Position numbers and translations under genes: made by a program. Below the pieces are notes generated by a model that was not told the origin of the DNA, searched no databases, and saw only the letters and a program-made list of their open reading frames with translations. From a virus: a stretch of 64,000 nucleotides of DNA. This document shows positions 39,582-63,863 of the stretch, piece by piece; the stretch's first letter is position 1; every line of letters starts with the position of its first letter. The DNA is taken from IMG/VR virus record IMGVR_UViG_3300021378_000010, positions 36,570 through 100,569 of that record, one strand, 5' to 3'.

Positions 39582-39652
39582 AAATTGAATTTTTTTGTTG
39601 ACAAAGGCGCCGAATCAGTATAAATATAATCTATAGAATAAAGAGGAAACCT

Positions 39653-39742
39653 ATGAACCGCTCAATTATGAAAAACATTTATACCATGTATACATGCAAG
39701 CATGAACGCTTTTGCATGTCTGAGGGTTTTGGAAACGGTTAA
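39653..39742 (+). CDS. Putative attenuator leader peptide 1 (MNRSIMKNIYTMYTCKHERFCMSEGFGNG)
   Basis: SD GAGGA; TATAAATA at 39619; 3' end overlaps antiterminator strand; codons match array-1 tRNAs. Confidence 0.75.
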   Translation: MNRSIMKNIYTMYTCKHERFCMSEGFGNG

Positions 39743-39801
39743 CGAGTATAGTAAGTTAATAAGTTTCAAACCCTCCAGGCGAAAGTCTCGGAGGGTTTTT
39801 T
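39722..39801 (+). terminator. Attenuator 1: antiterminator 39722-39736/39763-39775 versus intrinsic terminator 39768-39801
   Basis: GAGGGTTTTGGAAAC pairs with GTTTCAAACCCTC; AAACCCTCC-AGGCGAAAGTCTC-GGAGGGTTT plus T run. Confidence 0.8.
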
Positions 39802-42829: not shown

Positions 42830-42833
42830 AGAC

Positions 42834-42917: not shown

Positions 42918-42923
42918 AATTTT

Positions 42924-42997: not shown

Positions 42998-43004
42998 TAA
43001 ATAA

Positions 43005-43079: not shown

Positions 43080-43080
43080 T

Positions 43081-43155
43081 CCTGACGTAGTGATAATGGT
43101 AGCACACTGAGCTGTGGACTCGGTAGAGTTGGTTCGAAACCAGCCGTCAGGACCA
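43081..43155 (+). tRNA. tRNA-His(GTG), alphaproteobacterial type (no G-1, A73)
   Basis: CTGAG-CT-GTG-GA-CTCGG; CCTGACG/CGTCAGG-A-CCA. Confidence 0.85.
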
Positions 43156-43206
43156 ATAAATCACGATAAATAGTACTCAATGTATTATTCGTGAAAGGAA
43201 TAAAGA

Positions 43207-44070: not shown

Positions 44071-44288
44071 CAACGCAGGACAAAATAGTACTCATTCTTT
44101 CTTTAGGACTGATTCTATTACTTGTTGGCATAGTTGGTTTTGACTTTACTATAGCAATTCAAGAAGGTCGACCACCAGATGATAGTGTTATTGAATTGTT
44201 ACAAATGTCTATTACTGGAATTGTTGGTATAGTAGCTGGTTACCTTGCAGGTAAAAATAATAATGACGATGATGAAAATAATTGTTGA
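44067..44288 (+). CDS. Two-TM membrane protein
   Basis: Two hydrophobic helices; coupled start. Confidence 0.7.
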   Translation: MTTQDKIVLILSLGLILLLVGIVGFDFTIAIQEGRPPDDSVIELLQMSITGIVGIVAGYLAGKNNNDDDENNC

Positions 44289-44330
44289 CATTTGTAAGGA
44301 ATTGGATTATATTAATTATATAAAGAAAAT

Positions 44331-44398
44331 TGGATGATTACAGCAAAAACTCACGCTAAAAAACTTTTGATGTGTCTTAGCGGACAAACATCATCCAG
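44331..44398 (+). ncRNA. Stem-CAGCA (Y-RNA-like) ncRNA copy 1
   Basis: TGGATGAT-TACAGCAA...ATCATCCA-G. Confidence 0.65.
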
Positions 44399-44409
44399 AT
44401 AAAGAAAAT

Positions 44410-44487
44410 AGGATCGTTACAGCATTTCCTAGCTCAGGTAGAGCATTTGACTTGTAATCAAACGAAAAGCCGAAAGGCACGATCCTG
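44410..44487 (+). ncRNA. Stem-CAGCA ncRNA copy 2, with tRNA D arm and TGT anticodon arm
   Basis: AGGATCGT-TACAGCA...TAGCTCAGGTAGAGC-A-TTTGA-CTTGTAA-TCAAA...ACGATCCT-G. Confidence 0.7.
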
Positions 44488-44504
44488 AATATACTATGAA
44501 ACAT

Positions 44505-44587
44505 TGGTTTGTTTCAGCAAAAACTCGGATAAAAATCAAACTTCATAACTTTGATCGAATGGGTTCAAATCCCACCATACAAACCAG
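44505..44587 (+). ncRNA. Stem-CAGCA ncRNA copy 3, with anticodon-like and T arms
   Basis: TGGTTTGT-TTCAGCAA...TGGGTTCAAATCCCA...ACAAACCA-G. Confidence 0.65.
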
Positions 44588-44600
44588 AAAGGAATACACT

Positions 44601-46028
44601 ATGTCTTTTAAAAATGCAGCACTAAATATGAATAACGAAGCGGTAGCTCGTACTGAAAATGGTATGAGAGCTCGTAAGACTTCTGCCTCTGCAGTTCTTG
44701 ATTTTTTCGGTAAAGCTGGTTCCGCTCGTGGAACCGATATTACAAAAGATTTTATGTCTGCACTTGTAGACAACCAGGACCTCGCTGTTCGGGCTCTTCT
44801 TTGGACTCGTGACATTCGTGGTGGTGCTGGTGAACGTTCTCAGTTCCGTAATTTGCTTGCAAAGCTAGAGGCTTCCGACCCAACTCTAGCTGGTCGTTTG
44901 ATGGCACGAGTTCCTGAACTTGGCCGTTGGGATGATCTATTCGCTTACACTGATCCAATCAACCGTCGTAAGGCTTTTGAAATGATCCGTGAAGCACTGA
45001 CTATGAAGAATGGTCTATGCGCTAAGTGGATGCCTCGCAAAGGTTCTGTAGCTGTAGAACTTACTAAGTTTCTTAATCTGACTCCAAAGCAGTATCGTAA
45101 GTTGCTGGTTGGTCTAACTCAGGTTGTTGAAACTCAGATGTGTGCAAAGGAATGGGAAGCAATCAACTTCTCTCACGTTCCTTCTGTAGCATCTGCCCGC
45201 TACCAGAAAGCATTTGGTCGTAACGTTGGTGAAGCATATGGAGAATATCTTCGTGAACTCCAGAAGGCACCAGAGGATCGTAAAGATCCTAAAGTTAAGA
45301 TCAACGCAGCTGCAGTATATCCATACGATGTTGTGAAGTCTGTTACAAAGGGTAATGCGGCTGTTGCTAACGAACAGTGGAAGGCTCTGCCTAACTACGT
45401 TGGTGATGCTCGTATCATGCCGATGGTTGACGTATCTGGTTCTATGGGTAGACTTCGTTACAGTAGCGCTGGAACTGTTCAACCAATCGACGTAGCAATC
45501 TCTCTGGGTCTGTATCTGTCTGAAAAGAACACTTCTGATTTCAAGGACATGTTCCTGACTTTCAGTGGCAAGCCAAAGCTTGAAGTTCTCAAAGGCACTC
45601 TGTCTCAGCGTGTCGCACAGCTTGAGAAAGCACATTGGGACATGAACACTAACCTTCACGCAGCATTCGAAGAAATCCTTCGTGTTGCTAAGAAGGGTAA
45701 GGTTGCTCAAGCAGATATGCCTGAGATGCTGCTCATCCTCTCGGATATGCAGTTCGACAGCTGCACTCGCTTCGATGACTCTGCACAAGAGATGATCAAG
45801 CGTAAGTATGCTGAAGCAGGTTATGAAGTTCCTAAGATCGTATTCTGGAACCTTCGTGTATCAGGTACAGGTAACACTCCTGTTCGTTTCGATGATAAGG
45901 GTGTCTGCCACGTATCTGGTTTCAGCCCAGCAATCATGAAGGCAATTCTGTCTGTTGAAGAACTGGAAGACTTCACGCCGTTCAACGTGATGGTTAAGAC
46001 TCTTATGAGCGATCGTTACGATTACTAA
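44601..46028 (+). CDS. TROVE/Ro60-related vWA protein (DUF2828-like)
   Basis: TENG, RDIRGGAGER, GRWDDL, AKWMPR helical region; vWA DVSGSM, SDMQFD, FWNL; SD AAAGGA before ATG 44601. Confidence 0.8.
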   Translation: MSFKNAALNMNNEAVARTENGMRARKTSASAVLDFFGKAGSARGTDITKDFMSALVDNQDLAVRALLWTRDIRGGAGERSQFRNLLAKLEASDPTLAGRLMARVPELGRWDDLFAYTDPINRRKAFEMIREALTMKNGLCAKWMPRKGSVAVELTKFLNLTPKQYRKLLVGLTQVVETQMCAKEWEAINFSHVPSVASARYQKAFGRNVGEAYGEYLRELQKAPEDRKDPKVKINAAAVYPYDVVKSVTKGNAAVANEQWKALPNYVGDARIMPMVDVSGSMGRLRYSSAGTVQPIDVAISLGLYLSEKNTSDFKDMFLTFSGKPKLEVLKGTLSQRVAQLEKAHWDMNTNLHAAFEEILRVAKKGKVAQADMPEMLLILSDMQFDSCTRFDDSAQEMIKRKYAEAGYEVPKIVFWNLRVSGTGNTPVRFDDKGVCHVSGFSPAIMKAILSVEELEDFTPFNVMVKTLMSDRYDY

Positions 46029-46060
46029 GAGTTAGGCCTTCGGGCCTAGCCTCCAATCTT

Positions 46061-46196
46061 TGGATCATTTCAGCAACAAAACAGCTATGCATTGAAAGCA
46101 CGAGTTTGCAGGTTCGAGTCCTGCCTCCCCTACCATCTACAATTGAAGGGGAGTGGGCAAATGGTAAAGCCGCGTAAAAGCAAAAAGTTGATCCAG
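46061..46196 (+). ncRNA. Stem-CAGCA ncRNA copy 4, with circularly permuted tRNA domain (YrlA-like)
   Basis: T arm GCAGG-TTCGAGT-CCTGC, CTCCCCT-ACCA, linker, AGGGGAG, D arm, all inside TGGATCA/TGATCCA. Confidence 0.75.
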
Positions 46197-46218
46197 TTAA
46201 ACATTCAGGAGTTATATC

Positions 46219-46650
46219 ATGTCAGAACTACGTATTGAATCTTTCAAAAATGAATTTGACCAAACGATTAATCCCGGTGACGAAGTAGTATATGTAGCTA
46301 CTGGTTATTCCCATCAGGTAAGCGTAAATCGCGGCCGCTATCAGGGCTTGTGGTATAGCATTGTAACACGTACTCGTGAAGTAAAAGATGCCGACGGTAA
46401 CGTTGTAATGGAAGAACGCCACGGCCGACAGTATCCTAAGCGAGAATATTACACTGAGATGGCTCCTACGGCAGTTCGTCTTGATAATGTTCCAAAGGGG
46501 CATAAATACGTAGAAGTTTGGAACAAAGAAAAGCAACGCAAAGTCTGGACTAAAACAGATGAAATGCGTTATGGTACTACCACTCTTCCACGTAAACGAG
46601 TTTATAAGATTGGTACCTCGATGTTAGATTTCGCAGGTAACACTCTTTAA
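46219..46650 (+). CDS. Hypothetical protein
   Basis: SD AGGAG; ORF track. Confidence 0.7.
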   Translation: MSELRIESFKNEFDQTINPGDEVVYVATGYSHQVSVNRGRYQGLWYSIVTRTREVKDADGNVVMEERHGRQYPKREYYTEMAPTAVRLDNVPKGHKYVEVWNKEKQRKVWTKTDEMRYGTTTLPRKRVYKIGTSMLDFAGNTL

Positions 46651-46659
46651 TAAGAATTT

Positions 46660-46757
46660 AGGTTAGTTTCAGCAAACAAAAAATAGTTGGTTCGACTCCA
46701 ACACCACGCTCCATAATATCGCGTAGTGAGCCCATGGTGGGCAAACATGCTAACCTG
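46660..46757 (+). ncRNA. Stem-CAGCA ncRNA copy 5, with permuted T-acceptor-D domain
   Basis: AGGTTAG-TTTCAGCAA...GTTGG-TTCGACT-CCAAC...GCCC-ATGGT-GGGC...CTAACCT-G. Confidence 0.7.
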
Positions 46758-46765
46758 TAAAAATT

Positions 46766-46866
46766 TGGATGGTTTCAGCCAAAAATTGTATAGCTCATCG
46801 GTAGAGCAATTGCCTTCCAAGCAATGGGTTGCGGGTTCGATCCCCGCTACAAAAAACACCATCCAG
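46766..46866 (+). ncRNA. Stem-CAGC ncRNA copy 6, with a tRNA-Gly(TCC) core lacking a full acceptor/CCA
   Basis: TGGATGGT-TTCAGCC...D arm, ATTGC-CT-TCC-AA-GCAAT, T arm...ACCATCCA-G. Confidence 0.72.
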
Positions 46867-48134: not shown

Positions 48135-49961
48135 TTGTCTAAACAAGAAGACTTTCGTATTCTGACAGCACGTCAGCACGTACGTCAAAGAATTGGTATG
48201 TACATGGGCTCGAGTTCTCGCGAAGAGGTCGAGCGTTTTGTTCTCGGTGAATGGAAAAAAGCGACTTATGTTCCTGCGTTGTCAAAGATGATTGACGAGA
48301 TCCTTGACAACGCTATCGACGAAGCTATCCGTACAAATTTTGAATATGCTAACAAGGTCGACGTCTCGATCAATAATAATGAAGTCACTGTAGCCGATAA
48401 CGGCCGTGGTATTCCTCAAGATGAAATCTTTGATGAAGCTACCAATCAAAAGATAATTCGTCCTGTTGCTGCATGGACTAAGGTAAATGCCGGCACGAGT
48501 TTTGATGATGCACGAGTTACTATCGGCACAAACGGAGTAGGTTCCGCAGCAACTAACTTTCTGTCTGAAAGCTTTATTGGCCGCACATGGCAGAACGGAA
48601 AGCTCATCGAAGTAAAGTGTTCTGAAGGCGGTCTTCATGCGAATGTAAAAGAAAAAAACCAAGGCGGTAATGGTACAATCGTTACCTTTACTCCTGACTT
48701 CAGCCTCTTTGAGACTGACTCTCTTGACCAACTGGATACCATCTCACTTCTCGAGGATCGTCTCATCGGTCTTCAAATGGCGTTTCCTGAGATCAAGTTT
48801 TCGTTCAATAAAAAACGAATTCAGGTAAGTGACCTCAAGAAGTATGCTGCTATGTTCAGCGATACTTCTGTAATCGAACGTTCTGATGATCTTTCGTTTT
48901 TCTTTGCATCGTCCGAAGATGGCTTTCGTTCAAATAGTTTTGTCAACGGTGTGAATACTCGCCAGGGTGGCACGTATGTCGACCATATCGTAAACAACAT
49001 AGCAGATGAGCTTGCTGTTTTGATCAAAAAGAAACATAAGATCGAAGTGCCAAAAAGCACTGTCAAGAATGGTCTTACATTTGTAATGTTTGCTCGTAAC
49101 TTCATGAACCCCAAGTTTGATAGTCAGACTAAAGAACGTCTGACAAACGGTGTATCTGAAGTTCGTAACCACTTTGACCAAACCAAAGTAAAAGACTTCA
49201 GCTATTTCGCGCGCAAGCTTTTAAATACTCCTGAGATCATTGACCCTATTATTGAAGCTCAACTTGCGAAAAAACTTGCTGCTGATCGTCGTGCTGCTAC
49301 TCTGGCTCAGAAAAAGCTGAAAAAAGTTAAAGTTGCAAAGCATATTGCTGCAAACAGTGATGACGCACTTCTTGCGTTGGTCGAGGGTGACTCTGCTATG
49401 GGCTTCCTTCTCAAGGTTCGCGATTCTAGTAAACTTGGTGCTTATCCTCTTCGTGGTGTGATCATGAACACGTGGGATATGAAGCCTGCCGATGTGCTGA
49501 AAAATAAAGAACTTGGTGAACTTGTAGCAATTCTTGGTCTTGACATCAACAATCCAGACAGTGTAGACGACATGACTTATGCTGGTGTTGCTACACTGAC
49601 TGATGCTGACCATGATGGCGCAGGTCATATTACTCCTTTGATCATTGCATTCTTCTACAAGTTCTGGCCACGACTCTTGACTGAAAAGCGCATTCACATT
49701 ACTCGTTCTCCGATTATGATTTCGACCAATGGCAAGGATGTAAAGTGGTTCTTTACATACTCTGATGCAAATGAATTTAAGTCAAACTGCAAAGGCTATA
49801 ACCACCGCTATATCAAGGGTTTGGGATCGCTTACCGAAAATGAATATGACCGCGTGATCAACAATCCGATGCTTGATACAGTCACTGTCGACGATGCTTC
49901 CTATTTTCAAATCATGTTTGGAGGAAATGCTCAACTTCGTAAGGAACTGATGAATGAATGA
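48135..49961 (+). CDS. gp39: Type II topoisomerase large subunit (gp39+gp60 fused)
   Basis: EILDNAID, DNGRGIP, GTNGVG, EGDSA, PLRG, DADHDG, YIKGLGS. Confidence 0.96.
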   Translation: MSKQEDFRILTARQHVRQRIGMYMGSSSREEVERFVLGEWKKATYVPALSKMIDEILDNAIDEAIRTNFEYANKVDVSINNNEVTVADNGRGIPQDEIFDEATNQKIIRPVAAWTKVNAGTSFDDARVTIGTNGVGSAATNFLSESFIGRTWQNGKLIEVKCSEGGLHANVKEKNQGGNGTIVTFTPDFSLFETDSLDQLDTISLLEDRLIGLQMAFPEIKFSFNKKRIQVSDLKKYAAMFSDTSVIERSDDLSFFFASSEDGFRSNSFVNGVNTRQGGTYVDHIVNNIADELAVLIKKKHKIEVPKSTVKNGLTFVMFARNFMNPKFDSQTKERLTNGVSEVRNHFDQTKVKDFSYFARKLLNTPEIIDPIIEAQLAKKLAADRRAATLAQKKLKKVKVAKHIAANSDDALLALVEGDSAMGFLLKVRDSSKLGAYPLRGVIMNTWDMKPADVLKNKELGELVAILGLDINNPDSVDDMTYAGVATLTDADHDGAGHITPLIIAFFYKFWPRLLTEKRIHITRSPIMISTNGKDVKWFFTYSDANEFKSNCKGYNHRYIKGLGSLTENEYDRVINNPMLDTVTVDDASYFQIMFGGNAQLRKELMNE

Positions 49962-51345
49962 GTTGACAAACTTCTTCGATGATGATAATATAGAATCAAA
50001 TGAAAAGGAAACAACTTCTATGATTCGGGAATATCCAATCTCAAATGTAGCTCGAAGCGAGTGGCTCGACTTTGCGATGTACACAGTCGAGTCTCGTGCC
50101 ATCCCAAATATGATTGACGGCATGAAACCTGTGCAGCGTTTCTACGTTTATTCGTCTATCAAAAACAGTAAGACCGACTTCAAAAAGGTCAGCGCGGTTT
50201 CTGGCGTAGTTTCAGACTATGGTTATAACCACGGTGAGGGTTCTGCTGCTGGTGCAGGCCAGCTTATGGCTGCTGAATGGTCAAACAATATCTGTCTCGT
50301 AGAAGGTCGAGGTTCTTTCGGTACTCGATTAGTTCAATCAGCTGCAGCTGCTCGTTACACTTACACTCGACTGCACAAAAACTTCAGCAAATACATCAAA
50401 GATATTGATCTTGCTCCTATTCACGAAGATCCTGAGCACGAACCTCCACGTTTTTATGTTCCAGTAATTCCTTTGGTTCTTACAAATGGAGTCAAGGGTA
50501 TTGCAACTGGTTTTGCAACTAATATTCTACCTCGCGATCCTGAAGATCTTGTGCGCGCTTGTGCTGAGTATATCAAAACTGGTAACATTGACAAGAAAGT
50601 TCGAGTAAAGTTTCCAGACTTCAACGGAACTGTAATATGCAATCCAGAAGAAGGACGATACTACTGCAACGGCATTTTTGAACGCAAAAGCAAAACTCAG
50701 CTCCTTATTACTGAAGTTCCTTATGGATATGACCGCGAAGGTTATGTAAAGGTTCTTGACAATCTTGAGGACGCTGGTCATATTGTCGGTTACGATGATC
50801 TATGCGACAAGTCTGGGTTTAAGTTCGAAATCAAACTGAAGCAAAACACTTCGGCAAATTGGGATAATCAAAAGATTATCTCCGCCTTTAAGCTTTCAAA
50901 GCCGTTCACTGAAAACTTGACGGTTATTGATTATCGTGGGAAGCTAAAAGAATACACGGATGAACGCGATCTTGTTCGTGACTTCTGCGACTATCGCAAT
51001 ACTATCTTGCAAAAACGCATTGATCTTCGTAAGTCTGAAGCTGAAGAACTTGGCCGCTGGTTGACGGTAAAAATGGAATTCATTCAAGCTGTTCTTGATG
51101 ATAAGATCAAATTCAAAAATCAGAAGAAAGCAGAAGTTGCAAAACAGATTTTTGCTAATACTCAAGCAACTTCAGATGATGATGCTGACCGCTTGCTTCG
51201 TATCAACATCATGAGTTTGACTGATGAAATGGTAAAGCAACTTGCCAAAGAAATTAAGGAAGCTCAAAAACAACTCGAGTACTGGATGAAAACAACCGCC
51301 AAAAAGCAGTTTCTCAATGACCTTGAAGAGTTGACCACTGGTTAA
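49954..51345 (+). CDS. gp52: Type II topoisomerase medium subunit gp52
   Basis: DGMKPVQR, YNHGE, AAARY, GIATGF. Confidence 0.96.
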   Translation: MNELTNFFDDDNIESNEKETTSMIREYPISNVARSEWLDFAMYTVESRAIPNMIDGMKPVQRFYVYSSIKNSKTDFKKVSAVSGVVSDYGYNHGEGSAAGAGQLMAAEWSNNICLVEGRGSFGTRLVQSAAAARYTYTRLHKNFSKYIKDIDLAPIHEDPEHEPPRFYVPVIPLVLTNGVKGIATGFATNILPRDPEDLVRACAEYIKTGNIDKKVRVKFPDFNGTVICNPEEGRYYCNGIFERKSKTQLLITEVPYGYDREGYVKVLDNLEDAGHIVGYDDLCDKSGFKFEIKLKQNTSANWDNQKIISAFKLSKPFTENLTVIDYRGKLKEYTDERDLVRDFCDYRNTILQKRIDLRKSEAEELGRWLTVKMEFIQAVLDDKIKFKNQKKAEVAKQIFANTQATSDDDADRLLRINIMSLTDEMVKQLAKEIKEAQKQLEYWMKTTAKKQFLNDLEELTTG

Positions 51346-53345: not shown

Positions 53346-53508
53346 CGAAGCATTCAGTAAGTTGACTTCAGATGTGATAGCACGTCAACACTTTATCGCG
53401 TATGGTGATGGAGACGGATACTTTCGTATTGTAAAAGATAGATTTAGAAATAATTACGGTACAAGGATTTCAGAAAATGTTTTGCATTGGTATCTCGCGT
53501 ATAAATAA
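53320..53508 (+). CDS. Hypothetical protein
   Basis: SD GGAG. Confidence 0.55.
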   Translation: MNVMVLQNNEAFSKLTSDVIARQHFIAYGDGDGYFRIVKDRFRNNYGTRISENVLHWYLAYK

Positions 53509-53531
53509 TACAAAACAAGCGCGAGTATCAC

Positions 53532-54437
53532 ATGGCTATTACATCACTATCTAATCTGAGTATGAACACAATTGCCAACGAGTTTGGTGGATCTACTCCG
53601 CACTCAATTTTAGAATATTATGTGGATGGGGGTCTGATACCAACATTAAGACGAAACGTAGAGCGGATACCAGCAAATCTTGACAATATAATTTCGAATG
53701 TGCCCATAAGTTTAAGCAATTTTTCTGGTACTGCGAGAGAATACTTTTTTGAAGAATCTTATCGAGGCGGATCAGGCACTGTAACATTTAACGTACAAAC
53801 TGGATATTACAAAACTATTTTTGTATGTGGAGTTACAGACACACTTCCACTTAACACGACAGTAAATAATTTGCCATTGCCGACAATAACTTCTCCATTT
53901 TCAAGCAGCTTTCTTTCGTTGAGAACTGGACCAGAGCAACCATCTACAAATTTGGGTTCAGATGCTACAGTAAATGGTTATTCAGTTGTTACATACGATA
54001 CTACAGTTTCAAGTATTACCATATCGCTTCCAGCTGCGGTTTCTAATTATCTTATTATTACTGGATATAACACAGAACCAAATTACAGCGCTGATTTGCA
54101 ATATTTTACAACGCAGCAATATGTTGTAGCATTTGAATCTTCAAGTAGTTCAGATGCTATAATTTTAGGATCTGGTGGCGGTGTTGCGGAACTTCCGCTA
54201 AAAGGACCAAGAGTCAGATATGATTCTGGTATAGGTGATGCGCTTTCGATAAATGTTGTACTTATTTCAGCGATAGGAAATAACGTCAACAGCCCAATTG
54301 CTGGAACAAATTTCAATTACGGACCAACCAGCAGAATGATAGCAAGCTTTGACAGTACAAATACCGGTTCTGGAACCACAACGTATACAATACCAGGAAC
54401 GACGTTGCAAGCTGCAGCTATTATGTTTAGAGTGTAA
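53532..54437 (+). CDS. Putative virion/tail-fibre-associated protein
   Basis: Late promoter 53500; LSMNTIANEFGGSTPHSILEYY N-terminus; Ser/Thr-rich. Confidence 0.6.
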   Translation: MAITSLSNLSMNTIANEFGGSTPHSILEYYVDGGLIPTLRRNVERIPANLDNIISNVPISLSNFSGTAREYFFEESYRGGSGTVTFNVQTGYYKTIFVCGVTDTLPLNTTVNNLPLPTITSPFSSSFLSLRTGPEQPSTNLGSDATVNGYSVVTYDTTVSSITISLPAAVSNYLIITGYNTEPNYSADLQYFTTQQYVVAFESSSSSDAIILGSGGGVAELPLKGPRVRYDSGIGDALSINVVLISAIGNNVNSPIAGTNFNYGPTSRMIASFDSTNTGSGTTTYTIPGTTLQAAAIMFRV

Positions 54438-54499
54438 AAAAGTTTGTAGCACGCCGTCTTTCCGATATAAATAAATGTATGATAATAAAGAAGAGAAAA

Positions 54500-54574
54500 A
54501 TGCTTTCGATACTCGCCCAGAATAGTGTAACAAATTGGTCCGATCTTCCGGGTGGAGGGTTCGAGTTGCTTTGA
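54500..54574 (+). CDS. Putative attenuator leader peptide 2 (MLSILAQNSVTNWSDLPGGGFELL); in-frame ATG also at 54479
   Basis: TATAAATA at 54466; 3' end overlaps antiterminator strand; codons match array-2 tRNAs. Confidence 0.75.
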   Translation: MLSILAQNSVTNWSDLPGGGFELL

Positions 54575-54631
54575 CGTGGAATGTACATATCTACTTTAAG
54601 CAACTCGGGACATAAAAATCCCGAGTTTTTT
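54562..54631 (+). terminator. Attenuator 2: antiterminator 54562-54571/54598-54607 versus intrinsic terminator 54602-54631
   Basis: CGAGTTGCTT/AAGCAACTCG perfect 10 bp; AACTCGGGA-N8-TCCCGAGTT plus T run. Confidence 0.8.
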
Positions 54632-54791
54632 ATTTTGTTGTTGACATTTCGTGAGAATCGGTATAGTATGATAATATAAGGAATCAAGGAATAAACCACG
54701 ACGAGCCAAGCTCAAGACGGTAAAACTTTTTTCCTTAAACTGAACTTTTTAGGTTGACAAATACACCGAATCAGTTTAATATGATAATATA

Positions 54792-54960
54792 AGGAATGAA
54801 AATTCCTACGCTCTTTGAAAATTTGCTCCTTTTATCTTCTAGGCACATGCCGATAATGAAGATGGAAACAGACTTGCTCTGTTTTCACATGCACTAAAGA
54901 AAGTGTCTGATTAAGCTCAGCGAAAGGACGTGAAGCGTATAGTGCAGCTGAAAACAGAGC
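54792..54960 (+). promoter_or_regulatory. rrn-leader-like element: hairpin, boxA-like CGCTCTTTGAAAATT, long stem (54876-54896/54940-54960)
   Basis: Paralog of 39850-40061. Confidence 0.6.
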
Positions 54961-55242
54961 TTCAAAGATAGAGTCGGTATCAATGGTGTTGAGATACTAA
55001 ATATGGCTACTATCTACCGTATGGACTTCTAATAAATTTGACATACGGTTACAACGAATTATTATTGCTGGTTCGTCAATTAACCATTGACATTGTGATA
55101 GAATCAGTATATAAATTAAGTATCGAGACGATGTTGAGTGGTTGTCGAACCCCTGGTTCTAAAGTTCCAAAAACGACATTAAGAGATACATCGTCTGACG
55201 TAGCCTGCGCGTCGTTAGTAAACAAGTTCGGGCCAAGATTAT

Positions 55243-55317
55243 TCCTCAGTGGCCCTAAGGTAGGGCATCCGACTGTTAATCGGCGATTAGTTGGTTCGAT
55301 TCCAACCTGAGGAGCCA
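55243..55317 (+). tRNA. tRNA-Asn(GTT)
   Basis: CCGA-CT-GTT-AA-TCGG; G73-CCA. Confidence 0.88.
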
Positions 55318-55381
55318 AATAGGTAAGGGATAACAACGGCAGTCTCATTGCGTAGCAACGGTTGCCCTTACTAAAGAATAT

Positions 55382-55457
55382 TGCGGGGTAGAGAAGTAGC
55401 ATCTCGTCTGACTCATAATCAGAAGATCGCTGGTGCAAGTCCAGCCCACCGCAACCA
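55382..55457 (+). tRNA. tRNA-Met(CAT), initiator-like acceptor, atypical
   Basis: TGCGGGG...CCGCA-ACCA; TCTGA-CT-CAT-AA-TCAGA. Confidence 0.7.
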
Positions 55458-55462
55458 AATTT

Positions 55463-55538
55463 GCCCTTATAGCTCAGTTGGTAGAGCGCTGTACTTGTAA
55501 TGCAGATGTCCGGCGTTCGATTCGTCGTGAGGGCACCA
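55463..55538 (+). tRNA. tRNA-Thr(TGT)
   Basis: CTGTA-CT-TGT-AA-TGCAG; CCA. Confidence 0.9.
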
Positions 55539-55545
55539 AAACAAT

Positions 55546-55622
55546 GCTCTTGTAGCTCAATTGGTCAGAGCAGAGCGCTCATAACGCTTTGGTTCGGGGT
55601 TCGAGTCCCTGCGGGAGCACCA
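55546..55622 (+). tRNA. tRNA(CAT), probably Ile2 (lysidine, reads AUA)
   Basis: GAGCG-CT-CAT-AA-CGCTT; CGCTCATAACG resembles bacterial Ile2. Confidence 0.75.
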
Positions 55623-55627
55623 AAAAT

Positions 55628-55689
55628 AGGATCGGTTCAGCAAACAAAAACGCTAATTATTATAGTCTTAGCGGACAAAAACGATCCTG
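55628..55689 (+). ncRNA. Stem-CAGCA ncRNA copy 7 (similar to copy 1)
   Basis: AGGATCG-GTTCAGCAA...CGCTAA...GTCTTAGCGGACAAA...CGATCCT-G. Confidence 0.65.
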
Positions 55690-55699
55690 ATAGAATAAT

Positions 55700-55782
55700 G
55701 CGGGTATGGTGTAATTGGTAGCCACGACAGACTTAGAATCTGTTGCTTCGGCGTGGGGGTTCGAGTCCCTCTACCCGCACCA
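55700..55782 (+). tRNA. tRNA-Leu(TAG)
   Basis: ACAGA-CT-TAG-AA-TCTGT; variable arm; CCA. Confidence 0.92.
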
Positions 55783-55788
55783 ATAAAT

Positions 55789-55866
55789 GGGCCTTGACTG
55801 TGTAAATGGCTAACAGGCGTTTGTAACTCAAGTGTGCCAGGAGTTCAACTCTCCTAAGGTCCACCA
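55789..55866 (+). ncRNA. tRNA-like RNA with Ala acceptor identity and no canonical anticodon loop
   Basis: GGGCCTT/AAGGTCC (G3:U70)-A-CCA; T arm AGGAG-TTCAACT-CTCCT. Confidence 0.6.
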
Positions 55867-56168
55867 AAATAGACTGGATATAATCACCCCTTGTGAGGGT
55901 GACCCAAGGACTCAGTAACGAGATACAGCGAAGGGTTGTTGGTCAAGGTTGCAAACAACCCAGTCTATACTTATTCACTGTGTAAGAGGTCGACATCTTG
56001 CATAGAGAGAACACTGCATACCCCGTGGAACCTCGGGGTACCGACGATGACAGTTGTTGTGCAGGGGTAAAAGTCCCAACTGGGGGTTCTGGAAATTTTT
56101 ATAGGCGACGGCAATCGCCTTGACTAAAGAACTACAGTAGCAGTCTTTGCCGAGAAAGCGAACTAGTA

Positions 56169-56240
56169 GACTGTATCGTCTAATGGATAGGACGCCCTGC
56201 TTTACAGTGGGGAGATATGGGTTCGATACCTGTTGCAGTT
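56169..56240 (+). pseudogene. Degenerate tRNA-like element without CCA, inside a TGACTAAAGA/TCTTTAGTCA stem
   Basis: D arm TCGTCTAATGGATAGGAC; T loop GGTTCGATACC; irregular anticodon loop. Confidence 0.5.
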
Positions 56241-56262
56241 TTGTCTTTAGTCAGAAATTTAT

Positions 56263-56337
56263 AGGGGTGAAGGAAAATGGTAATCCACGGGCCTCCAAAA
56301 CCTTGAGAACGCGGTTCGATTCCGCGCACCCTTGCCA
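56263..56337 (+). tRNA. tRNA-Trp(CCA), weak anticodon stem
   Basis: CT-CCA-AA loop; G73-CCA. Confidence 0.78.
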
Positions 56338-56431
56338 ATAGCCAAGGTCCTAGACGTTGTGAAACTACAGGCTTTGTATGTAGTGAGAAAGCTAGGAGAC
56401 CTGCCAGTAGGGAGAAACTGGCACTTATTTT

Positions 56432-56524
56432 GGAGAGTGATCTACAGAGGTCTGTAGCCCGGTCTTGAAAACCGGTGGAGCGGCTAGTACCCGCTTGGGG
56501 ATCGTTACCACCCGCTCTCTGCCA
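56432..56524 (+). tRNA. tRNA-Ser(TGA)
   Basis: CCGGT-CT-TGA-AA-ACCGG; long variable arm; G73. Confidence 0.82.
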
Positions 56525-56635
56525 ATATTGTAGAAGTTGCCCACTGATCATATGCTGAGAGTTTTCGACCTGACTCGTTGAAGCGATTATGCCACTTCTA
56601 CCTACTAGAGGAATAGGTCCCTTCTAGATAGTTTC

Positions 56636-56710
56636 GGGCTGCGTCTATGGGGTAGCGGCTGATCCTTGCAAGATCGGCGTCACGGGGTTCGATTCCCCGG
56701 CGGTCCACCA
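56636..56710 (+). tRNA. tRNA-Ala(TGC)
   Basis: TGATC-CT-TGC-AA-GATCG; G3:U70. Confidence 0.8.
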
Positions 56711-56806
56711 AAATTTACTTGTCCAAGACCGCAAGGATTGGATCGCCTGAGCCGTAAGGTAATCCTTGGAACGATAACATGGCGTCCAAGCAAGTGATAT
56801 AGTATT

Positions 56807-56882
56807 GCGGATGTAGCTCAATCGGTAGAGCGTCTGCTTGCCAAGCAGAAGGTAGTGGGATCGTAACCCATCATCCGCTCCA
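56807..56882 (+). tRNA. tRNA-Gly(GCC)
   Basis: TCTGC-TT-GCC-AA-GCAGA; U73. Confidence 0.9.
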
Positions 56883-57032
56883 AATTTTATGACCGAAAGT
56901 CACTGTGCTGGTCTTGTCACCTTCATACACTTCGGTCTTCTAAACTGGTACCTATCGTTGTCAAATTATTAGGAAGGACATAGGGTGGATAGGTTAAAAG
57001 AATGCATGTTTGACTGCCAGTTAAATCAAAAT

Positions 57033-57106
57033 GGTCCATTGGTGTAATGGTAGCACGACAGTCTGTCTAACTGTTGGAAGGGGATCGTAACCCCTATGGA
57101 TCGCCA
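57033..57106 (+). tRNA. tRNA-Asp(GTC)
   Basis: ACAGT-CT-GTC-TA-ACTGT; G73. Confidence 0.85.
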
Positions 57107-57111
57107 ATAAC

Positions 57112-57186
57112 GCGAGATTAGCTCAGCGGTAGAGCAGCTCTTTTACACGGAGAAGGTCAGAGGTTCAATCCCTCTATCTCGCACCA
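57112..57186 (+). tRNA. tRNA-Val(TAC)
   Basis: CTCT-TT-TAC-AC-GGAG; CCA. Confidence 0.88.
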
Positions 57187-57283
57187 ATAATCGAACAAGG
57201 GTTTGTAGTAGAGAGTGACAGACCAGAAACCCTGAGACAAAAAAGTCAATACCCATTAAGATCGTCTGTTAGGTCACTCATTT

Positions 57284-57358
57284 TGGGAAGTAGTTCAGCG
57301 GCAGAGCGCCTGACTTTGAATCAGGATGTCGGAGGTTCGAATCCTCCCTTCCCAACCA
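57284..57358 (+). tRNA. tRNA-Gln(TTG)
   Basis: CCTGA-CT-TTG-AA-TCAGG; U1-A72. Confidence 0.9.
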
Positions 57359-57369
57359 AAAATTAAAAT

Positions 57370-57446
57370 GTCCTTGTGCTGCAATTGGTAGACAGGTTAC
57401 GTTGAGGGCGTAAATGTTGTGGGTTCGAGTCCCACCAAGGACACCA
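57370..57446 (+). tRNA. tRNA-Leu(GAG) with short variable loop
   Basis: TTACG-TT-GAG-GG-CGTAA; CCA. Confidence 0.82.
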
Positions 57447-57471
57447 AATTAGTATCTAAAGGTCCTATAAT

Positions 57472-57564
57472 GGAGAAGAGAGCTGTCAAGGTTGGCAGGT
57501 CTGCTTGGAAAGCAGATCGTGGTAGTAACCCTACCATGGGAATCGTGCTCCCCCTTCTCCGCCA
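57472..57564 (+). tRNA. tRNA-Ser(GGA)
   Basis: TCTGC-TT-GGA-AA-GCAGA; long variable arm. Confidence 0.82.
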
Positions 57565-57568
57565 ATAT

Positions 57569-57661
57569 GGAGGTGAGAGCCAGTAAGGTTGCTGGGACTG
57601 CCTGCTAAGCAGATCGTGGTAGTAACCCTACCATGGGAATCGTGCTCCCCCACCTCCGCCA
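57569..57661 (+). tRNA. tRNA-Ser(GCT)
   Basis: CTGC-CT-GCT-AA-GCAG; long variable arm. Confidence 0.82.
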
Positions 57662-57733
57662 AAAAATACTTGTTGACATTTGTAAAGAATCAGTATAGTA
57701 TGATAATATACCATCTGATAAAGGATACACACT

Positions 57734-57922
57734 ATGCTAACGACCAAACAAATTGCCCGTAAAGTTGCTCTGAAGATAGATTCTAATGCTGATCGTTACG
57801 ATCAAATCTGGGCAATCAAGCAAGAGTACATCAGTGCGGGTCAATCTTTACTAGCAACTGATCGCGAAACGATCGATAGAGTGCTTGAAATTCTTTATCA
57901 TGATTATGCATTTTGCGGTTGA
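57734..57922 (+). CDS. Hypothetical early protein
   Basis: Early promoter 57673; SD AAGGA. Confidence 0.65.
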   Translation: MLTTKQIARKVALKIDSNADRYDQIWAIKQEYISAGQSLLATDRETIDRVLEILYHDYAFCG

Positions 57923-57977
57923 CAAACCTTAAGAATCAGTATATTATCTAATTATGATAAAGGAAAAGGAACCCATC

Positions 57978-58175
57978 ATGCAGATTAACGGTACCAAACT
58001 TGCAGAGATTGCCTACGGAATGTCCGAGATGGCACGCGGTCATAAGAATGACATGATTTCAAATAACCTTGCTCGTGTATCTGAAAAGGTAGCTGCACAT
58101 GGAGCAACTTGGGGTGGTTCACCTCTCGATAAAACTGATATGATGGTGGTTCAATACTACCTCGCAAACAAATAA
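57978..58175 (+). CDS. Hypothetical early protein
   Basis: Early promoter 57919; SD AAGGA. Confidence 0.65.
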   Translation: MQINGTKLAEIAYGMSEMARGHKNDMISNNLARVSEKVAAHGATWGGSPLDKTDMMVVQYYLANK

Positions 58176-58182
58176 GAACAAA

Positions 58183-58259
58183 CAGGGTATAGCTCAGTCT
58201 GGTAGAGTGCTTCACTTGGAATGAAGAAGTCGTAGGTTCGAGTCCTGCTACCCTGACCA
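58183..58259 (+). tRNA. tRNA-Pro(TGG)
   Basis: CTTCA-CT-TGG-AA-TGAAG; C1-G72. Confidence 0.92.
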
Positions 58260-58706
58260 ATTCGCGTCCCCTATAAAATGGGGTCTAGATAGAAACGTTG
58301 CTAAGGTCTTTTAATAGGTTAGGATCGACGGCTCCTTCCGGTAAAGCGTTAAATCCGGACAATGTTTCTATCGCTTCCAGGTCCTTCGGGATTCTGTGCA
58401 GGCTCTCCACTTTGTGGATCCTGATTAAATCCTCTAAGTGTTGAGGTCACATAGGCAAATTTGACTATTTGGGGTCTGTGTGGTGTAAAATAGTCTAAGA
58501 CTACATTGGGTGTCGGTGTAGTACTAAAAATAAACGTCTAGACATGGATACACTACGATAACTCGTTATATCCACTCTAGGTACCAAGAGAACGCTAAAG
58601 GATTAACTTAGTGTATCTTTGTCTGGGCGTTAGGGCACCCCGTATTATAAATCTCGACAATGGTAACAAACAAGCCATTGCGTCTGGCAAACGAAACACC
58701 GCCTTT

Positions 58707-58792
58707 TGGATGGATACTGCAACCAAACAAGTAGGGTAACCTACGTATCAGAATGGTTTGGATAGTATCGTTGAGGTCCACAGACCATCCAG
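58707..58792 (+). ncRNA. Stem-CTGCAA ncRNA copy 8 (variant)
   Basis: TGGATGG-ATACTGCAA...CCATCCA-G. Confidence 0.55.
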
Positions 58793-58899
58793 TCAATTAA
58801 ATTGTGGATAGTATGCGATATGAAGCCAACCCATCAAAATGTAAGATGAAGGCTAGTGAGGCTAGCGGAACATGACAGGCCGGAGAGACGGCCACCTAT

Positions 58900-58974
58900 G
58901 CGGGTGTAGCTCAGTGGTAGAGCTCCTGCCTTCCAAGCAGATTGTCGTCGGTTCGATCCCGATCACCCGCTCCA
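58900..58974 (+). tRNA. tRNA-Gly(TCC)
   Basis: CTGC-CT-TCC-AA-GCAG; U73. Confidence 0.92.
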
Positions 58975-58977
58975 GAT

Positions 58978-59349
58978 TTAATATCCTTTGTCTTCATCAT
59001 TTTTATTACTGTGTTTGCTCATATAAGCTTCCTTGCCATAAAATGCAGCAAGTATACCAGCAACAGAAATGAAGTATATATCGGCCATAGAAGCAAGAAT
59101 AGAAGCATCTAATCCGATCGCGGCCATAAACATAGTCAAAATTGGATAGAATATCATACCGATCAATGCTACCCAAGCCATTCTTCGTTGTGCATCTTGT
59201 TTTTTGTCTTCATTTTCAATTTGTATCATTTTTTCAGATTTAGACATTTCAGCATCACTCACTATACCATCTTTATTGAGATCGTACTCTTCGTACTTTG
59301 ATCCAGTTTCTAATTTTTTTGACATGTTATTCCCCGTGGATTTACTCAT
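58978..59349 (-). CDS. Two-TM membrane protein with EF-hand-like loop (holin-like?)
   Basis: DLNKDGIVSDAE; two hydrophobic helices; lone minus-strand gene in the array. Confidence 0.65.
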   Translation of the reverse strand: MSKSTGNNMSKKLETGSKYEEYDLNKDGIVSDAEMSKSEKMIQIENEDKKQDAQRRMAWVALIGMIFYPILTMFMAAIGLDASILASMADIYFISVAGILAAFYGKEAYMSKHSNKNDEDKGY

Positions 59350-59428
59350 ATCAAAAAGCTCAACTATTACTATTTATTAGTTGACAAATATCAAGAATCA
59401 GTATAAGATTATAAATATAAGGAATAAT

Positions 59429-59505
59429 GGTTCCGTAGCTCAGCTGGATAGAGCAAGTGACTTCTAATCACTAGGTCGAGGGTTCGAATCCTTCCGGGAC
59501 CGCCA
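59429..59505 (+). tRNA. tRNA-Arg(TCT)
   Basis: AGTGA-CT-TCT-AA-TCACT; CCA. Confidence 0.92.
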
Positions 59506-59530
59506 ATAAACATAACGTAAAGGAAACTGA

Positions 59531-59746
59531 ATGACTTCTGACGCTTATGTACTAAAACGCAAGAACGGTAGCTTAGTAGAACATATTGTTCTCACAAGAC
59601 AATCAAATGGTTTATATTCAGATGAGTCAGTAGAAGTTTTATCTTTTACGACTGAACGTAAAGCACTTGAAGTAGCAAAAGTTATTGATGACGGCAACTG
59701 CGAAGTTATCTTATACGCTAATTACGATATGAAGTTAGCGGCATAA
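59531..59746 (+). CDS. Hypothetical protein
   Basis: SD AAGGA. Confidence 0.65.
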   Translation: MTSDAYVLKRKNGSLVEHIVLTRQSNGLYSDESVEVLSFTTERKALEVAKVIDDGNCEVILYANYDMKLAA

Positions 59747-59786
59747 TACTACAGGAGAAGTATCTTCTGATATAATAAAATGGAGA

Positions 59787-60005
59787 GTGATTATGGAACT
59801 TTTATTTACAATATTTTTATGGGCTGCTTTTGTATACGGTATCTACAAATGGGCAGAATCTAAAGGGCGCGAGCCTTGGCTTTGGGCAATTGCCGCAGCG
59901 CTAGTGTCTCCCTTGATTGTTGGTATTATTTTACTATTCGTACCCAAAACAATTGAAAAGCAAGCTGAAGAAGCTAAGCGTATGAAAGAATTGATGAAAG
60001 ATTAA
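59787..60005 (+). CDS. Small membrane protein
   Basis: AESKGR..W.W motif; two TMs. Confidence 0.7.
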   Translation: MIMELLFTIFLWAAFVYGIYKWAESKGREPWLWAIAAALVSPLIVGIILLFVPKTIEKQAEEAKRMKELMKD

Positions 60006-60011
60006 TCTATA

Positions 60012-60094
60012 GCCCCCTTGGTGAAATAGGTAACCACAGCAGACTTAAAATTTGCCGCTTCGGCTTCCCGGTTCGAGTCCGGGAGGGGGCACCA
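60012..60094 (+). tRNA. tRNA-Leu(TAA)
   Basis: GCAGA-CT-TAA-AA-TTTGC; CCA. Confidence 0.9.
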
Positions 60095-60101
60095 AAATAA
60101 T

Positions 60102-60193
60102 GGAAGTGGGTGTCGGTACACAGGGAGGTCTTATAAACCTTTCAGCGCCAGATTAGCGTTCTCGACCAGGTTCAACTCCTGGCACTTCTACCA
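60102..60193 (+). tRNA. Atypical tRNA with TAT anticodon (Ile?), short D arm, long variable arm
   Basis: GAGGT-CT-TAT-AA-ACCTT; GGAAGTG/CACTTCT-A-CCA. Confidence 0.68.
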
Positions 60194-60211
60194 AAATTCG
60201 AGGAAAATACA

Positions 60212-60403
60212 ATGAACGAAGATAATTGGAGCATAAATTTTGATTGGAATCAAAAGTGGAAAGACTTTAATTCTATGCAGTTATTTTTAGTAACAGATGA
60301 AAATGTTCTTATTGATAATATTGAAAACCGTATGGAAAAGTCGAACTTCAATGTTGACTTAGCAACTGAAATGCTTAACCAAATTGGAATAAAGCAAAAC
60401 TAA
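60212..60403 (+). CDS. Hypothetical protein
   Basis: SD GAGGA. Confidence 0.6.
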   Translation: MNEDNWSINFDWNQKWKDFNSMQLFLVTDENVLIDNIENRMEKSNFNVDLATEMLNQIGIKQN

Positions 60404-61820: not shown

Positions 61821-61894
61821 CATTTTTGTCACATATTTACTAAATAGTAATTTAGCAGTTGACATTTACTATAAAATGTATTATATATAACTTG

Positions 61895-62217
61895 TAGGCG
61901 TTGAAGCAACGTGGACACATTCTGGACTCGGGGGCGGTACCCGACGACTCCACCATAAACAGTCGCGATCTTCTGATCCTTAAAGTGATGATGAGTCTGA
62001 CCACAGAGCCAAGGCAGTGATAAGCTAGTCATGGGTGACTGTTTTTGCTGGGGTCGAAATAGGATCGACAGGTGTGAAGATGAAGTGGAGTTTACCGGAT
62101 GACTGCGTTATTGGTCAATTAAACTAAATGCAAATGAAAATTTCGCACCTAAGGCTTTTGCTCTAGCAGCATAAGTACTGTGGGTTGGCAACTTACCTAG
62201 AAACAGAAAAGTTGCAC
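61895..62217 (+). ncRNA. ssrA: Two-piece (circularly permuted) tmRNA; tag (A)ANENFAPKAFALAA
   Basis: Acceptor piece ending CGACTCCACCA (61955); intervening hairpin; coding piece from GGGGTCG (62050); tag frame 62130-62174. Confidence 0.92.
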
Positions 62218-62248
62218 TTTTCATGAAAACAAAACAAGGAATACAAAT

Positions 62249-62650: not shown

Positions 62651-63223
62651 ATGTCGACATTGAAAGAACTCACCTGGGAAAACCATAAAAAAGCCGAGCG
62701 AACAAAGTTTATGCAAAGGCTTATTAAACGCAATATTACTCCACAGCAATATTATGTTTATCTTAAAAACCAAGCTGAAGCATATCGTACTCTTGAATAT
62801 TATGCTTCTTTACAAAACATGTTTGACTTCGAAAATGAAGAATTATATCCTATACTTCGAACTGCGAGCATGTTGCAAGATATTAATGAAATGGAAGATG
62901 CACATGAGTTTAAAGATGCACCAATATTTGGATCTATTCAATTATATCAAGAGTACATCAGTAAGATTAAAAATGACAAAAATAAGCTGCTTGCTCATAT
63001 CTATGTAAGACACATGGGTGATCTATCGGGTGGGCAAATTATTAAGAAGCTCGTTCCTGGTCCTACGCAAACTTACGAGTTTGGTAGTAATCCTGAAGAT
63101 CTTAAAACGGCCATAAGAAAAAGACTGCACGACGGTCTAGTAGATGAAGCAAACGCGTGCTTTATTATGGTTCAAAAATTCTTAGAAGAATTGGAACAAT
63201 ATTTTGACGACAACATGGGATAA
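62651..63223 (+). CDS. ho1: Heme oxygenase
   Basis: LKELTWENHKKAE; AHIYVRHMGDLSGGQII; late promoter 62594. Confidence 0.93.
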   Translation: MSTLKELTWENHKKAERTKFMQRLIKRNITPQQYYVYLKNQAEAYRTLEYYASLQNMFDFENEELYPILRTASMLQDINEMEDAHEFKDAPIFGSIQLYQEYISKIKNDKNKLLAHIYVRHMGDLSGGQIIKKLVPGPTQTYEFGSNPEDLKTAIRKRLHDGLVDEANACFIMVQKFLEELEQYFDDNMG

Positions 63224-63863
63224 AGTAGTACCTCTATCTGAAAAGATCATGTCGCTTTTTGATCAAAACTTTACTAAAGAAAAAACTACAACCGAATTTG
63301 ACGGATGGGAAGATCATTTTTGGTCTTCTGATTCTATCAGAAAGTGCCATCTTAAAACCATTGACCATCGTGAGTCTAGAAAAATGTGGCTCATGCACAT
63401 CAATATCTTTCCTCGAGCACAATACAATCTTCCAATACTTGGTTTTGACATAGTCGCAGGCCCACGAAAAATTACGGGCGCATTCTTCGATTACTCCAAT
63501 TGTACGTACCATCCGTATGGTGACTATTTAGAAGTGTCAACTAAGAATTTAAATTGGAATAAGCCACGAGAATTACCAGAATGGGCACGAGAAATATTCA
63601 CACCAGATATGATTGCCGCTGGAAATATTCAAGGTGAAGAAGTAGACCAATTATGTGAAGTAACATACGATCTTATAAGACATTATATTGAAAACTTAAA
63701 AGACAATGCGGTTGCAAGTTCTCGCAACTTTTCAGATTGGCATAATTTGTATTGCAAAAATCAAAAAAAGAACCCGCATTTACACAGATCAATACTACAA
63801 ATGGATATATCTGAAGAAGACAAAAATCGTTACGTAAATGAAATTCTTTTTGAAGAAATTTGA
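63204..63863 (+). CDS. Ferredoxin-dependent bilin reductase (PcyX/PcyA-like)
   Basis: HINIFP...LPILGFDIV...AFFDYS...RELPEWA..IF...QKKNPH; coupled to heme oxygenase. Confidence 0.88.
   Translation: MTTTWDKVVPLSEKIMSLFDQNFTKEKTTTEFDGWEDHFWSSDSIRKCHLKTIDHRESRKMWLMHINIFPRAQYNLPILGFDIVAGPRKITGAFFDYSNCTYHPYGDYLEVSTKNLNWNKPRELPEWAREIFTPDMIAAGNIQGEEVDQLCEVTYDLIRHYIENLKDNAVASSRNFSDWHNLYCKNQKKNPHLHRSILQMDISEEDKNRYVNEILFEEI

Follow-up and report, generated by a model that had tools for sequence, protein, structure and literature searches.

A putative leader-peptide attenuator upstream of a tRNA gene array in a T4-like phage

Known attenuators and the control of tRNA arrays

Transcription attenuation by a leader peptide is classically found in the amino acid operons of enterobacteria, with the trpL, hisL, leuL, and pheL leaders and the multivalent leaders of thrL and ilvGMEDA. 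The locus described here has in common with these attenuators a short open reading frame (ORF) rich in the relevant codons and mutually exclusive antiterminator and terminator helices. It would also share their logic, in which the 5' strand of the antiterminator is covered once the ribosome has reached the stop codon and a stall further upstream results in readthrough. However, it differs from them in its presumed targets, which are tRNA genes instead of biosynthetic enzymes, and in the composition of its leader, which offers about one codon for each of ~17 tRNA species whereas theirs contain runs for one to three amino acids. Moreover, the promoter is a phage late promoter, further promoters separate the attenuator from its targets, a clear 1:2 anti-antiterminator is lacking, and the predicted default without translation is readthrough.

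Three other systems come close. In Actinobacteria, stalling on the uORF of the whiB7/wblC attenuator leads to antitermination, and knock-downs of tRNAs or synthetases activate it (PMC10274678). As proposed for the phage leader, the composition of this uORF sets which shortages are sensed, but it is enriched in Ala codons and its output is the transcription factor of a stress regulon (PMC10274678), whereas the phage leader is diverse and its output would be the sensed tRNAs themselves, in a direct feedback loop. T-box riboswitches likewise report tRNA status through transcription antitermination, but they sense uncharged tRNA by direct binding, with no translation involved, and their targets are synthetase and amino acid genes, while the phage element has an ORF. 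The nearest regulation of a tRNA array that we found in print is that of the Anabaena trn operon, a long cyanobacterial array induced under translational stress (PMC8421152) and repressed by TrcR (PMC10272220). There too, a supplementary tRNA array is turned on when translation is impaired, but control is exerted by a protein repressor, and the words attenuat-, leader, and terminator are all absent from the 2021 report (PMC8421152). Thus, trp-operon-style attenuation is well known, but a leader-peptide attenuator acting on tRNA genes did not turn up in our literature search. This locus bears on the reasons for which large phages have tRNA genes by the dozen and on the way in which they express them.

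Among curated RNA families, no Rfam leader family matched positions 54300-60400 at an E value of ≤1 or reached its gathering score anywhere in the window (the whole 64-kb stretch of DNA analyzed), and no T-box riboswitch was matched in the window. For a sister unit located before another tRNA array (unit 1), the Phe_leader score was 21.3 bits, below the cutoff of 55. Over positions 39693-39804, this unit gave sub-threshold, nonsignificant matches to Phe_leader (21.3 bits), His_leader, and PyrG_leader, which show that its architecture resembles that of curated attenuators.

The leader ORF and the putative RNA switch before array 2

The window is the right-hand part of an IMG/VR virus record of 100.6 kb, whose completeness is estimated at about one half, and the phage is T4-like. 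Its late promoter box, TATAAATA, occurs at 16 sites in the window compared to 4.8 expected and typically stands 20 to 26 nt 5' of the start codons of other plus-strand genes, and a sigma-70-type early promoter is repeated in seven copies in the genome. The gene upstream of the locus (53532-54437) is a late gene with its own late box at 53500. Features are positioned in Table 1.

Table 1. Features of the two leader units and their surroundings (window numbering)
Feature	Position	Strand	Details
Unit 1 (before array 1)	39600..39797	+	TTGACA/TATAAATA promoter; 29-codon leader 39653-39742; arm 39722-39729; terminator 39769-39797
tRNA array 1	40067-46855		
Topoisomerase II subunits	48135-51345		
T4-type late promoter box TATAAATA	54466..54473	+	Predicted late transcript start near 54479
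5' UTR	54479..54499	+	GAAGAG, a weak purine-rich run resembling a Shine-Dalgarno sequence; or, with a leaderless start at the ATG of 54479, seven additional in-frame codons
Leader ORF	54500..54574	+	24 codons plus TGA (54572-54574); start 26 nt after the late box
Leader 3'-half hairpin	54537..54566	+	-9.9 kcal/mol
Antiterminator 5' arm	54560..54571	+	Last four sense codons; ends 1 nt before the stop codon
Antiterminator 3' arm	54598..54609	+	Overlaps the terminator 5' arm
Intrinsic terminator	54602..54636	+	9-bp stem 54602-54610/54619-54627 with 5 GC, loop of 8, T run; -13.4 to -14.8 kcal/mol
Sigma-70-type promoters (three)	54641-54669, 54754-54782, 55038-55065	+	
Structured conserved RNA	about 54795-54985	+	Fold z = -2.8
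tRNA array 2 (presumed regulated genes)	55243-60193	+	19 distinct anticodons among 20 typed tRNAs; one odd tRNA-like gene in addition
Ser(TGA)	56431-56523		ARAGORN, relaxed threshold; Rfam scores 56431-56521 as tRNA-like
Ala(TGC)	56636-56710		ARAGORN, relaxed threshold
Ser(GGA)	57472-57564		ARAGORN, relaxed threshold
Ser(GCT)	57569-57661		ARAGORN, relaxed threshold

A preliminary description of this DNA had proposed an attenuator here and listed the codons of its leader and two in-frame ATGs, at 54479 and 54500. All are present where it had placed them, and the 24 codons of 54500-54574 are exactly those listed. The Shine-Dalgarno-like sequence before 54500, which it had called weak, is the weakest of the family (GAAGAG), with AGGA- or GAGG-like motifs found 5' of the leaders of relatives. 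It had called a leaderless start speculative; we favor 54500 as the putative start and rank the leaderless ATG at 54479 second. Indeed, 54500 lies at the same 26 nt from the late box as the starts in unit 1 and in G001B, a unit of a related phage presented below, and its distance falls within the 20 to 26 nt of other genes. Moreover, the ATG at 54479 is destroyed in one natural variant, a contig with a 2-nt insertion after 54480, and G001B has no ATG at the equivalent site. A leaderless long form nevertheless appears possible, given that in the related unit L127 (L127:6327), as at window position 54479, an in-frame ATG stands exactly 5 nt past TATAAATA, both units being of type 2. This extension would add three Lys codons, a species of array 1, and the AGA codon for Arg(TCT) that, as already pointed out in the preliminary description, the 24-codon form does not contain.

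The perfect 10-bp antiterminator and the terminator with a T run that had been described as competitors are both found in the sequence, the perfect helix (54562-54571/54598-54607) extending to 12 bp with G-U pairs (54560-54571/54598-54609) and sharing 6 to 8 nt with the 5' arm of the terminator. Sequestration of this arm is stronger than in dinucleotide shuffles (ddG of -11.3 versus -4.3 kcal/mol, p=0.008), while the equilibrium minimum free energy of the whole 201-nt region is unexceptional (z=-1.6); in these models, the signal is one of alternative pairing and not of overall stability. When nascent RNA was folded, the full terminator stem formed only if the 3' end of the leader was masked, and masking the leader as by a ribosome at the TGA yielded the full terminator (-14.8 kcal/mol). 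With a simulated stall at or before about codon 16, or with no ribosome, the whole 5' arm was sequestered before the 3' arm had been made. Since the antiterminator is thus favored without a ribosome, the default state would be readthrough, unlike in trp. Simulated stalls at codons 17 to 20 (Pro and three Gly), which are close to the antiterminator arm, favored termination, so that some of the sampled tRNAs would be unable to signal in this simple model. The hairpin in the 3' half of the leader, which may be a pause or anti-antiterminator element, coexists with the antiterminator in the nascent fold, and its outer bases help to sequester the terminator arm.

The codons of the leader were compared with the tRNAs of both arrays by a coverage score, i.e., the number of distinct array anticodons that can each be assigned to a leader codon under standard wobble rules. 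The 24-codon leader covers 17/19 distinct anticodons of array 2 but only 4/12 of array 1. Coverage of 17/19 is rarely reached by in-frame 24-codon windows from 83 genes of the same phage (mean of 10.6, p=6e-5) or by nucleotide shuffles of the leader (p=4e-4). In the whole record, a score of 17 is reached by 2/366 ATG ORFs of 20 to 35 codons, among which the leader or its 31-codon form (score of 18) is itself to be expected. Altogether, apart from a clear 1:2 pairing, the architectural elements of an attenuator are present and statistically nonrandom.

This comparison depends on the tRNA census, as ARAGORN at its default setting misses several tRNAs, all those needed being recovered at a relaxed threshold (Table 1); Tyr(GTA) and Thr(GGT) of array 1 likewise need the relaxed threshold. 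With this census, array 2 serves the box of every one of the first 20 codons, as had been claimed, and the three Ser tRNAs (TGA, GCT, and GGA) that the claim assumed are all found. Under strict wobble, GCC is the sole failure among these 20 codons, Ala being read only through extended wobble, which the preliminary description had also anticipated. Thus, the array-2 anticodons left without a leader codon are Arg(TCT) and, under strict wobble, Ala(TGC). Within 59381-59429, a sigma-70-type promoter and a TATAAATA box (59410-59417) lie 12 nt before the tRNA-Arg(TCT) gene; as this is the one array-2 tRNA lacking any codon in the 24-codon leader, the final three tRNAs may be driven separately, as a sub-unit of the array. 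Two genes of the array are odd: the one at 56168-56242 has a two-base "anticodon" call and an Rfam tRNA score of 35.8 bits, and the 92-nt gene at 60102-60193, an Ile(TAT) according to ARAGORN, has no more than a weak, Sec-like score in Rfam. Should the latter gene be nonfunctional, the ATA codon of the leader would rely on a lysidine-modified Ile tRNA among the three CAT tRNAs.

The sister unit, related phages, and natural variants

Unit 1 has a late box, 26 nt past which starts a leader with a good Shine-Dalgarno sequence. An arm of this unit (39722-39729) can pair with its terminator, and the same early-promoter repeat stands behind it. Its leader covers 12/12 anticodons of array 1 (p=0.0016), alone in this among the 366 small ORFs, and 7/19 of those of array 2, and sequestration of its terminator arm gives a ddG of -10.6 (p=0.007). 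By this reciprocal coverage, the two leaders split the genetic code as the arrays do.

Relatives were reached by two routes, through the topoisomerase and through an 18-nt motif, TCTRTTTTCACATGYACT, of the structured RNA that follows the switch. The first led to G001, a complete 283-kb phage with a topoisomerase 70% identical to that of the window. Before its large array (unit G001B) are found a late box, a 30-codon ORF, a terminator with a 9-bp antiterminator (GGGTCACTT/AAGTGACCC), and an early promoter; this leader reaches 22/30 anticodons in its own array (p<2e-5 versus gene windows, 0.009 versus shuffles) and 2 in the other one. The 19-codon leader of the other unit, G001A, covers 9/9 anticodons of a Cys-Ile-Tyr-Phe-Lys-Glu-Met array (p of about 0.001 to 0.002). 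The second route gave 31 IMG/VR stretches, of which 28 have tRNA genes; the motif matches are mostly inside or adjoining a tRNA array, and many of the stretches carry an attenuator-like unit just upstream.

From these, we curated a family of 15 units, the two of the window and 13 from related IMG/VR phages. Across the family, the amino acid sets of the leaders match their own arrays better than in any of 20000 permutations (p<5e-5), with at most two array amino acids per unit lacking a leader codon. Leaders of mixed arrays use 17 to 20 amino acid types, and those of split arrays are restricted accordingly. The 5' arm of the terminator is sequestered beyond shuffles (p≤0.05) in 13/15 units, and its partners in the nascent folds mostly lie in the last 1 to 42 nt of the leader, with more distant ones added in two folds; the stop codon lies 22 to 31 nt 5' of the terminator in the 15 units. 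In most related units, among them G001A, G001B, L104, L114, L117, L127, L130, and L134, a TATAAATA box is found before the leader. The antiterminators differ in sequence, with CGAGTTGCTT/AAGCAACTCG in unit 2 of the window, the G001B helix given above, and a 12-bp GGGTTGCTTTGG helix in L127; since these type-2 units keep both helices, this amounts to compensatory change. Peptide sequences are not conserved between homologous units, whereas composition and RNA geometry are, and short peptide motifs recur close to the ends of type-1 leaders. Fine covariation within a type is uneven, reaching 5/9 of the tRNAs in L127 and 7/10 in L116, both on incomplete contigs. This evidence from unit 1 and the 13 related units is the decisive addition to the case, with a shared geometry, differing helix sequences, and leader codons that track the tRNAs behind them.

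Other searches extended the family less. A pattern scan for the type-2 switch (GTTGCTTTG...AAGCAACYC) returned 92 stretches, of which only L127 has tRNAs downstream, so that the remaining matches are taken to be due to chance. In L008, with a topoisomerase 95% identical, the downstream region is not syntenic, and L010 has two tRNAs but no attenuator. The phage GenBank collection yielded no relative of 53500-55400 beyond tRNA matches, and an IMG/VR scan with the upstream 301-amino-acid (aa) protein gave no match. This protein has five close homologues (P0002-P0006), and a metagenome scan found only relatives of its N-terminal domain and one identical contig ending before the leader.

Natural variants of the locus were obtained by comparing metagenome contigs of a diverged strain from other samples over 54200-55350. 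In the contig whose differences are fully accounted for, 54535-54659 has two substitutions, both synonymous (CTT to CTC and CCG to CCT), and one 1-nt insertion in the spacer, whereas 54660-54817 has 13 substitutions and 6 indel letters and the end of the upstream gene differs by ~14%. Thus, natural variants conserve the leader and the switch far better than the flanks. The same haplotype exchanges AGT for AAT at codon 9 and AAT for AGT at codon 12, which changes two residues but keeps the codon set and the 17/19 coverage. As four random substitutions retain 17/19 in 21% of trials, this preservation is only suggestive.

Proposed regulation, alternatives, and neighboring features

The attenuator interpretation of the preliminary description is supported by our analysis on purely computational grounds. 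We propose that the locus is probably a leader-peptide transcription attenuator that gates readthrough from the late promoter into array 2, the signal being the supply of the array's own tRNA species. By analogy with T4, late transcription would begin ~6 nt past TATAAATA, and a ribosome would initiate at 54500 and trail the polymerase. If the leader is decoded promptly, the ribosome at the TGA (54572) would cover 54560-54571, leaving 54598-54609 free, and the hairpin 54602-54627 would form, as in the folding simulations, with transcription ending in the T run. If the ribosome stalls at about codons 2 to 16, which include codons for Leu, Ile, Ala, Gln, Asn, Val, Thr, Trp, and Asp and three for Ser, 54560-54571 would pair with 54598-54609 as soon as the polymerase has transcribed that segment, a step reproduced by folding. 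The 5' arm of the terminator would then be sequestered and the polymerase would probably continue into the array. This model supposes that stalls reflect a shortage of charged tRNAs, that translation is coupled to transcription, and that readthrough transcripts run the ~600 nt to the array. The net effect would be a negative feedback on the phage tRNA supply late in infection, and unit 1, using the half of the code that complements this one, would exert an equivalent control of array 1.

The array does have promoters of its own, as three sigma-70-type promoters stand behind the terminator within the ~600 nt that separate it from the first tRNA. The attenuator is therefore not the sole gate of the array, and the switch could act only on transcription initiated upstream of it, most plausibly at a late stage of infection. 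Early in infection, these promoters would presumably drive the array without the attenuator.

Beyond this locus, we tentatively put forward a wider hypothesis, possible but somewhat short of an even chance, in which the T4-like aquatic phages of one clade hold their own tRNA supply steady with a homeostat. The leaders would poll nearly every tRNA of their array, one codon each, and split arrays would constitute two independent channels. As such a sensor reads the combined host and phage tRNA pool, it would double as a counterdefense trigger, late tRNA transcription rising when the host degrades or cleaves particular tRNAs. With a translated sensor coupled to its array, the phage would measure decoding speed codon by codon and top up exactly the tRNAs in short supply, and classical attenuation would be extended from amino acid biosynthesis to the tRNA pool. 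It would also leave a readable genomic signature, the leader listing the tRNAs treated as one regulatory unit. Such regulation would bear on phage-host conflicts over tRNAs, for example host tRNA turnover and anticodon nucleases, and could provide compact multi-input parts for translation-stress sensing.

Other explanations have to be weighed against the attenuator model. The locus might sense translation status in general. Ribosomes slowed or uncoupled for whatever reason (e.g., translation shut-off, toxins, or a shortage of ribosomes) would then free the antiterminator and open the array, with codon diversity only giving the leader an average look. This would agree with the nascent fold favoring the antiterminator without a ribosome, with the 17 to 20 amino acid types in the leaders of mixed-array relatives, and with the many translation insults to which the whiB7 uORF attenuator responds (PMC10274678). 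However, a general sensor has no need for the split seen in the two split-array genomes, whose leaders divide the code likewise and are depleted for the other array, and the leaders are far from average when compared to real gene windows (coverage p of 6e-5 to 0.002); we consider this explanation unlikely.

Less likely still is that 54500-54574 is an ordinary small late gene that encodes a functional micropeptide and has its own terminator, the pairing of the arms being incidental. A late promoter, an ORF, and a terminator do make a complete transcription unit of ~150 nt, and the peptide motifs shared by type-1 leaders could be read in the same way. Nevertheless, what homologous units conserve is composition and RNA geometry and not the peptide, the natural variant swaps codons at the cost of two residues with its codon set intact, and a micropeptide gives no reason for a composition that tracks the downstream tRNA set. 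Finally, the hairpin could be the terminator of the upstream late gene, of which it is the first terminator 3' and which has its own late box, the ORF being a chance frame in the 3' UTR. We regard this as very improbable, as a second late box stands between the stop codon of that gene and the terminator, the ORF is at the top of the 366 small ORFs for array coverage (2/366 reach 17), the arrangement recurs before tRNA arrays in relatives with different upstream genes, and the 3' end of this gene is less conserved than the leader and the switch.

Several neighboring features were recorded along with the units. Directly 3' of array 2, the phage encodes a permuted (two-piece) tmRNA (61855-62218; Rfam scores of 124.6 bits for alpha_tmRNA and 111.6 bits for tmRNA_permuted), and genes for a heme oxygenase and a ferredoxin-dependent bilin reductase lie at 62651-63863. 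Such genes are typical cyanophage auxiliary genes, which suggests a cyanobacterial host or cyanophage-like lifestyle; a cyanobacterial host would also fit the two-piece tmRNA and the weak use of Shine-Dalgarno sequences.

In both units, the early promoter is followed by a structured RNA (54795-54985 and 39860-40066), which is also seen in L104-L134. A long closing helix (TTTTCACATGCACT ... AGTGCAGCTGAAAACAGAG) surrounds a variable insert, which contains T-arm-like GGTTCGAWTCC modules in unit 1 and is replaced by a different 90-nt sequence in variant strains. Neither copy in the window has an Rfam match, and the RNA may be Y-RNA-like or a tRNA mimic. Two RNA runs, X19 and X20, yielded small parts of the region and no contig over the leader; contigs of X19 extend over 54936-55063 and 55239-55319 and are uninformative on expression. 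Inside array 1, 40806-41327 encodes a protein whose HAD domain is that of "Swiss Army Knife" RNA-repair proteins. The product of 44496-46028, likewise within this array, is 510 aa long, contains the domains DUF2828 and DUF7788 (PHROG annotation "RNA-binding protein"), and could be a candidate TROVE/vWA (Ro60-like) partner of tRNA-mimic RNAs.
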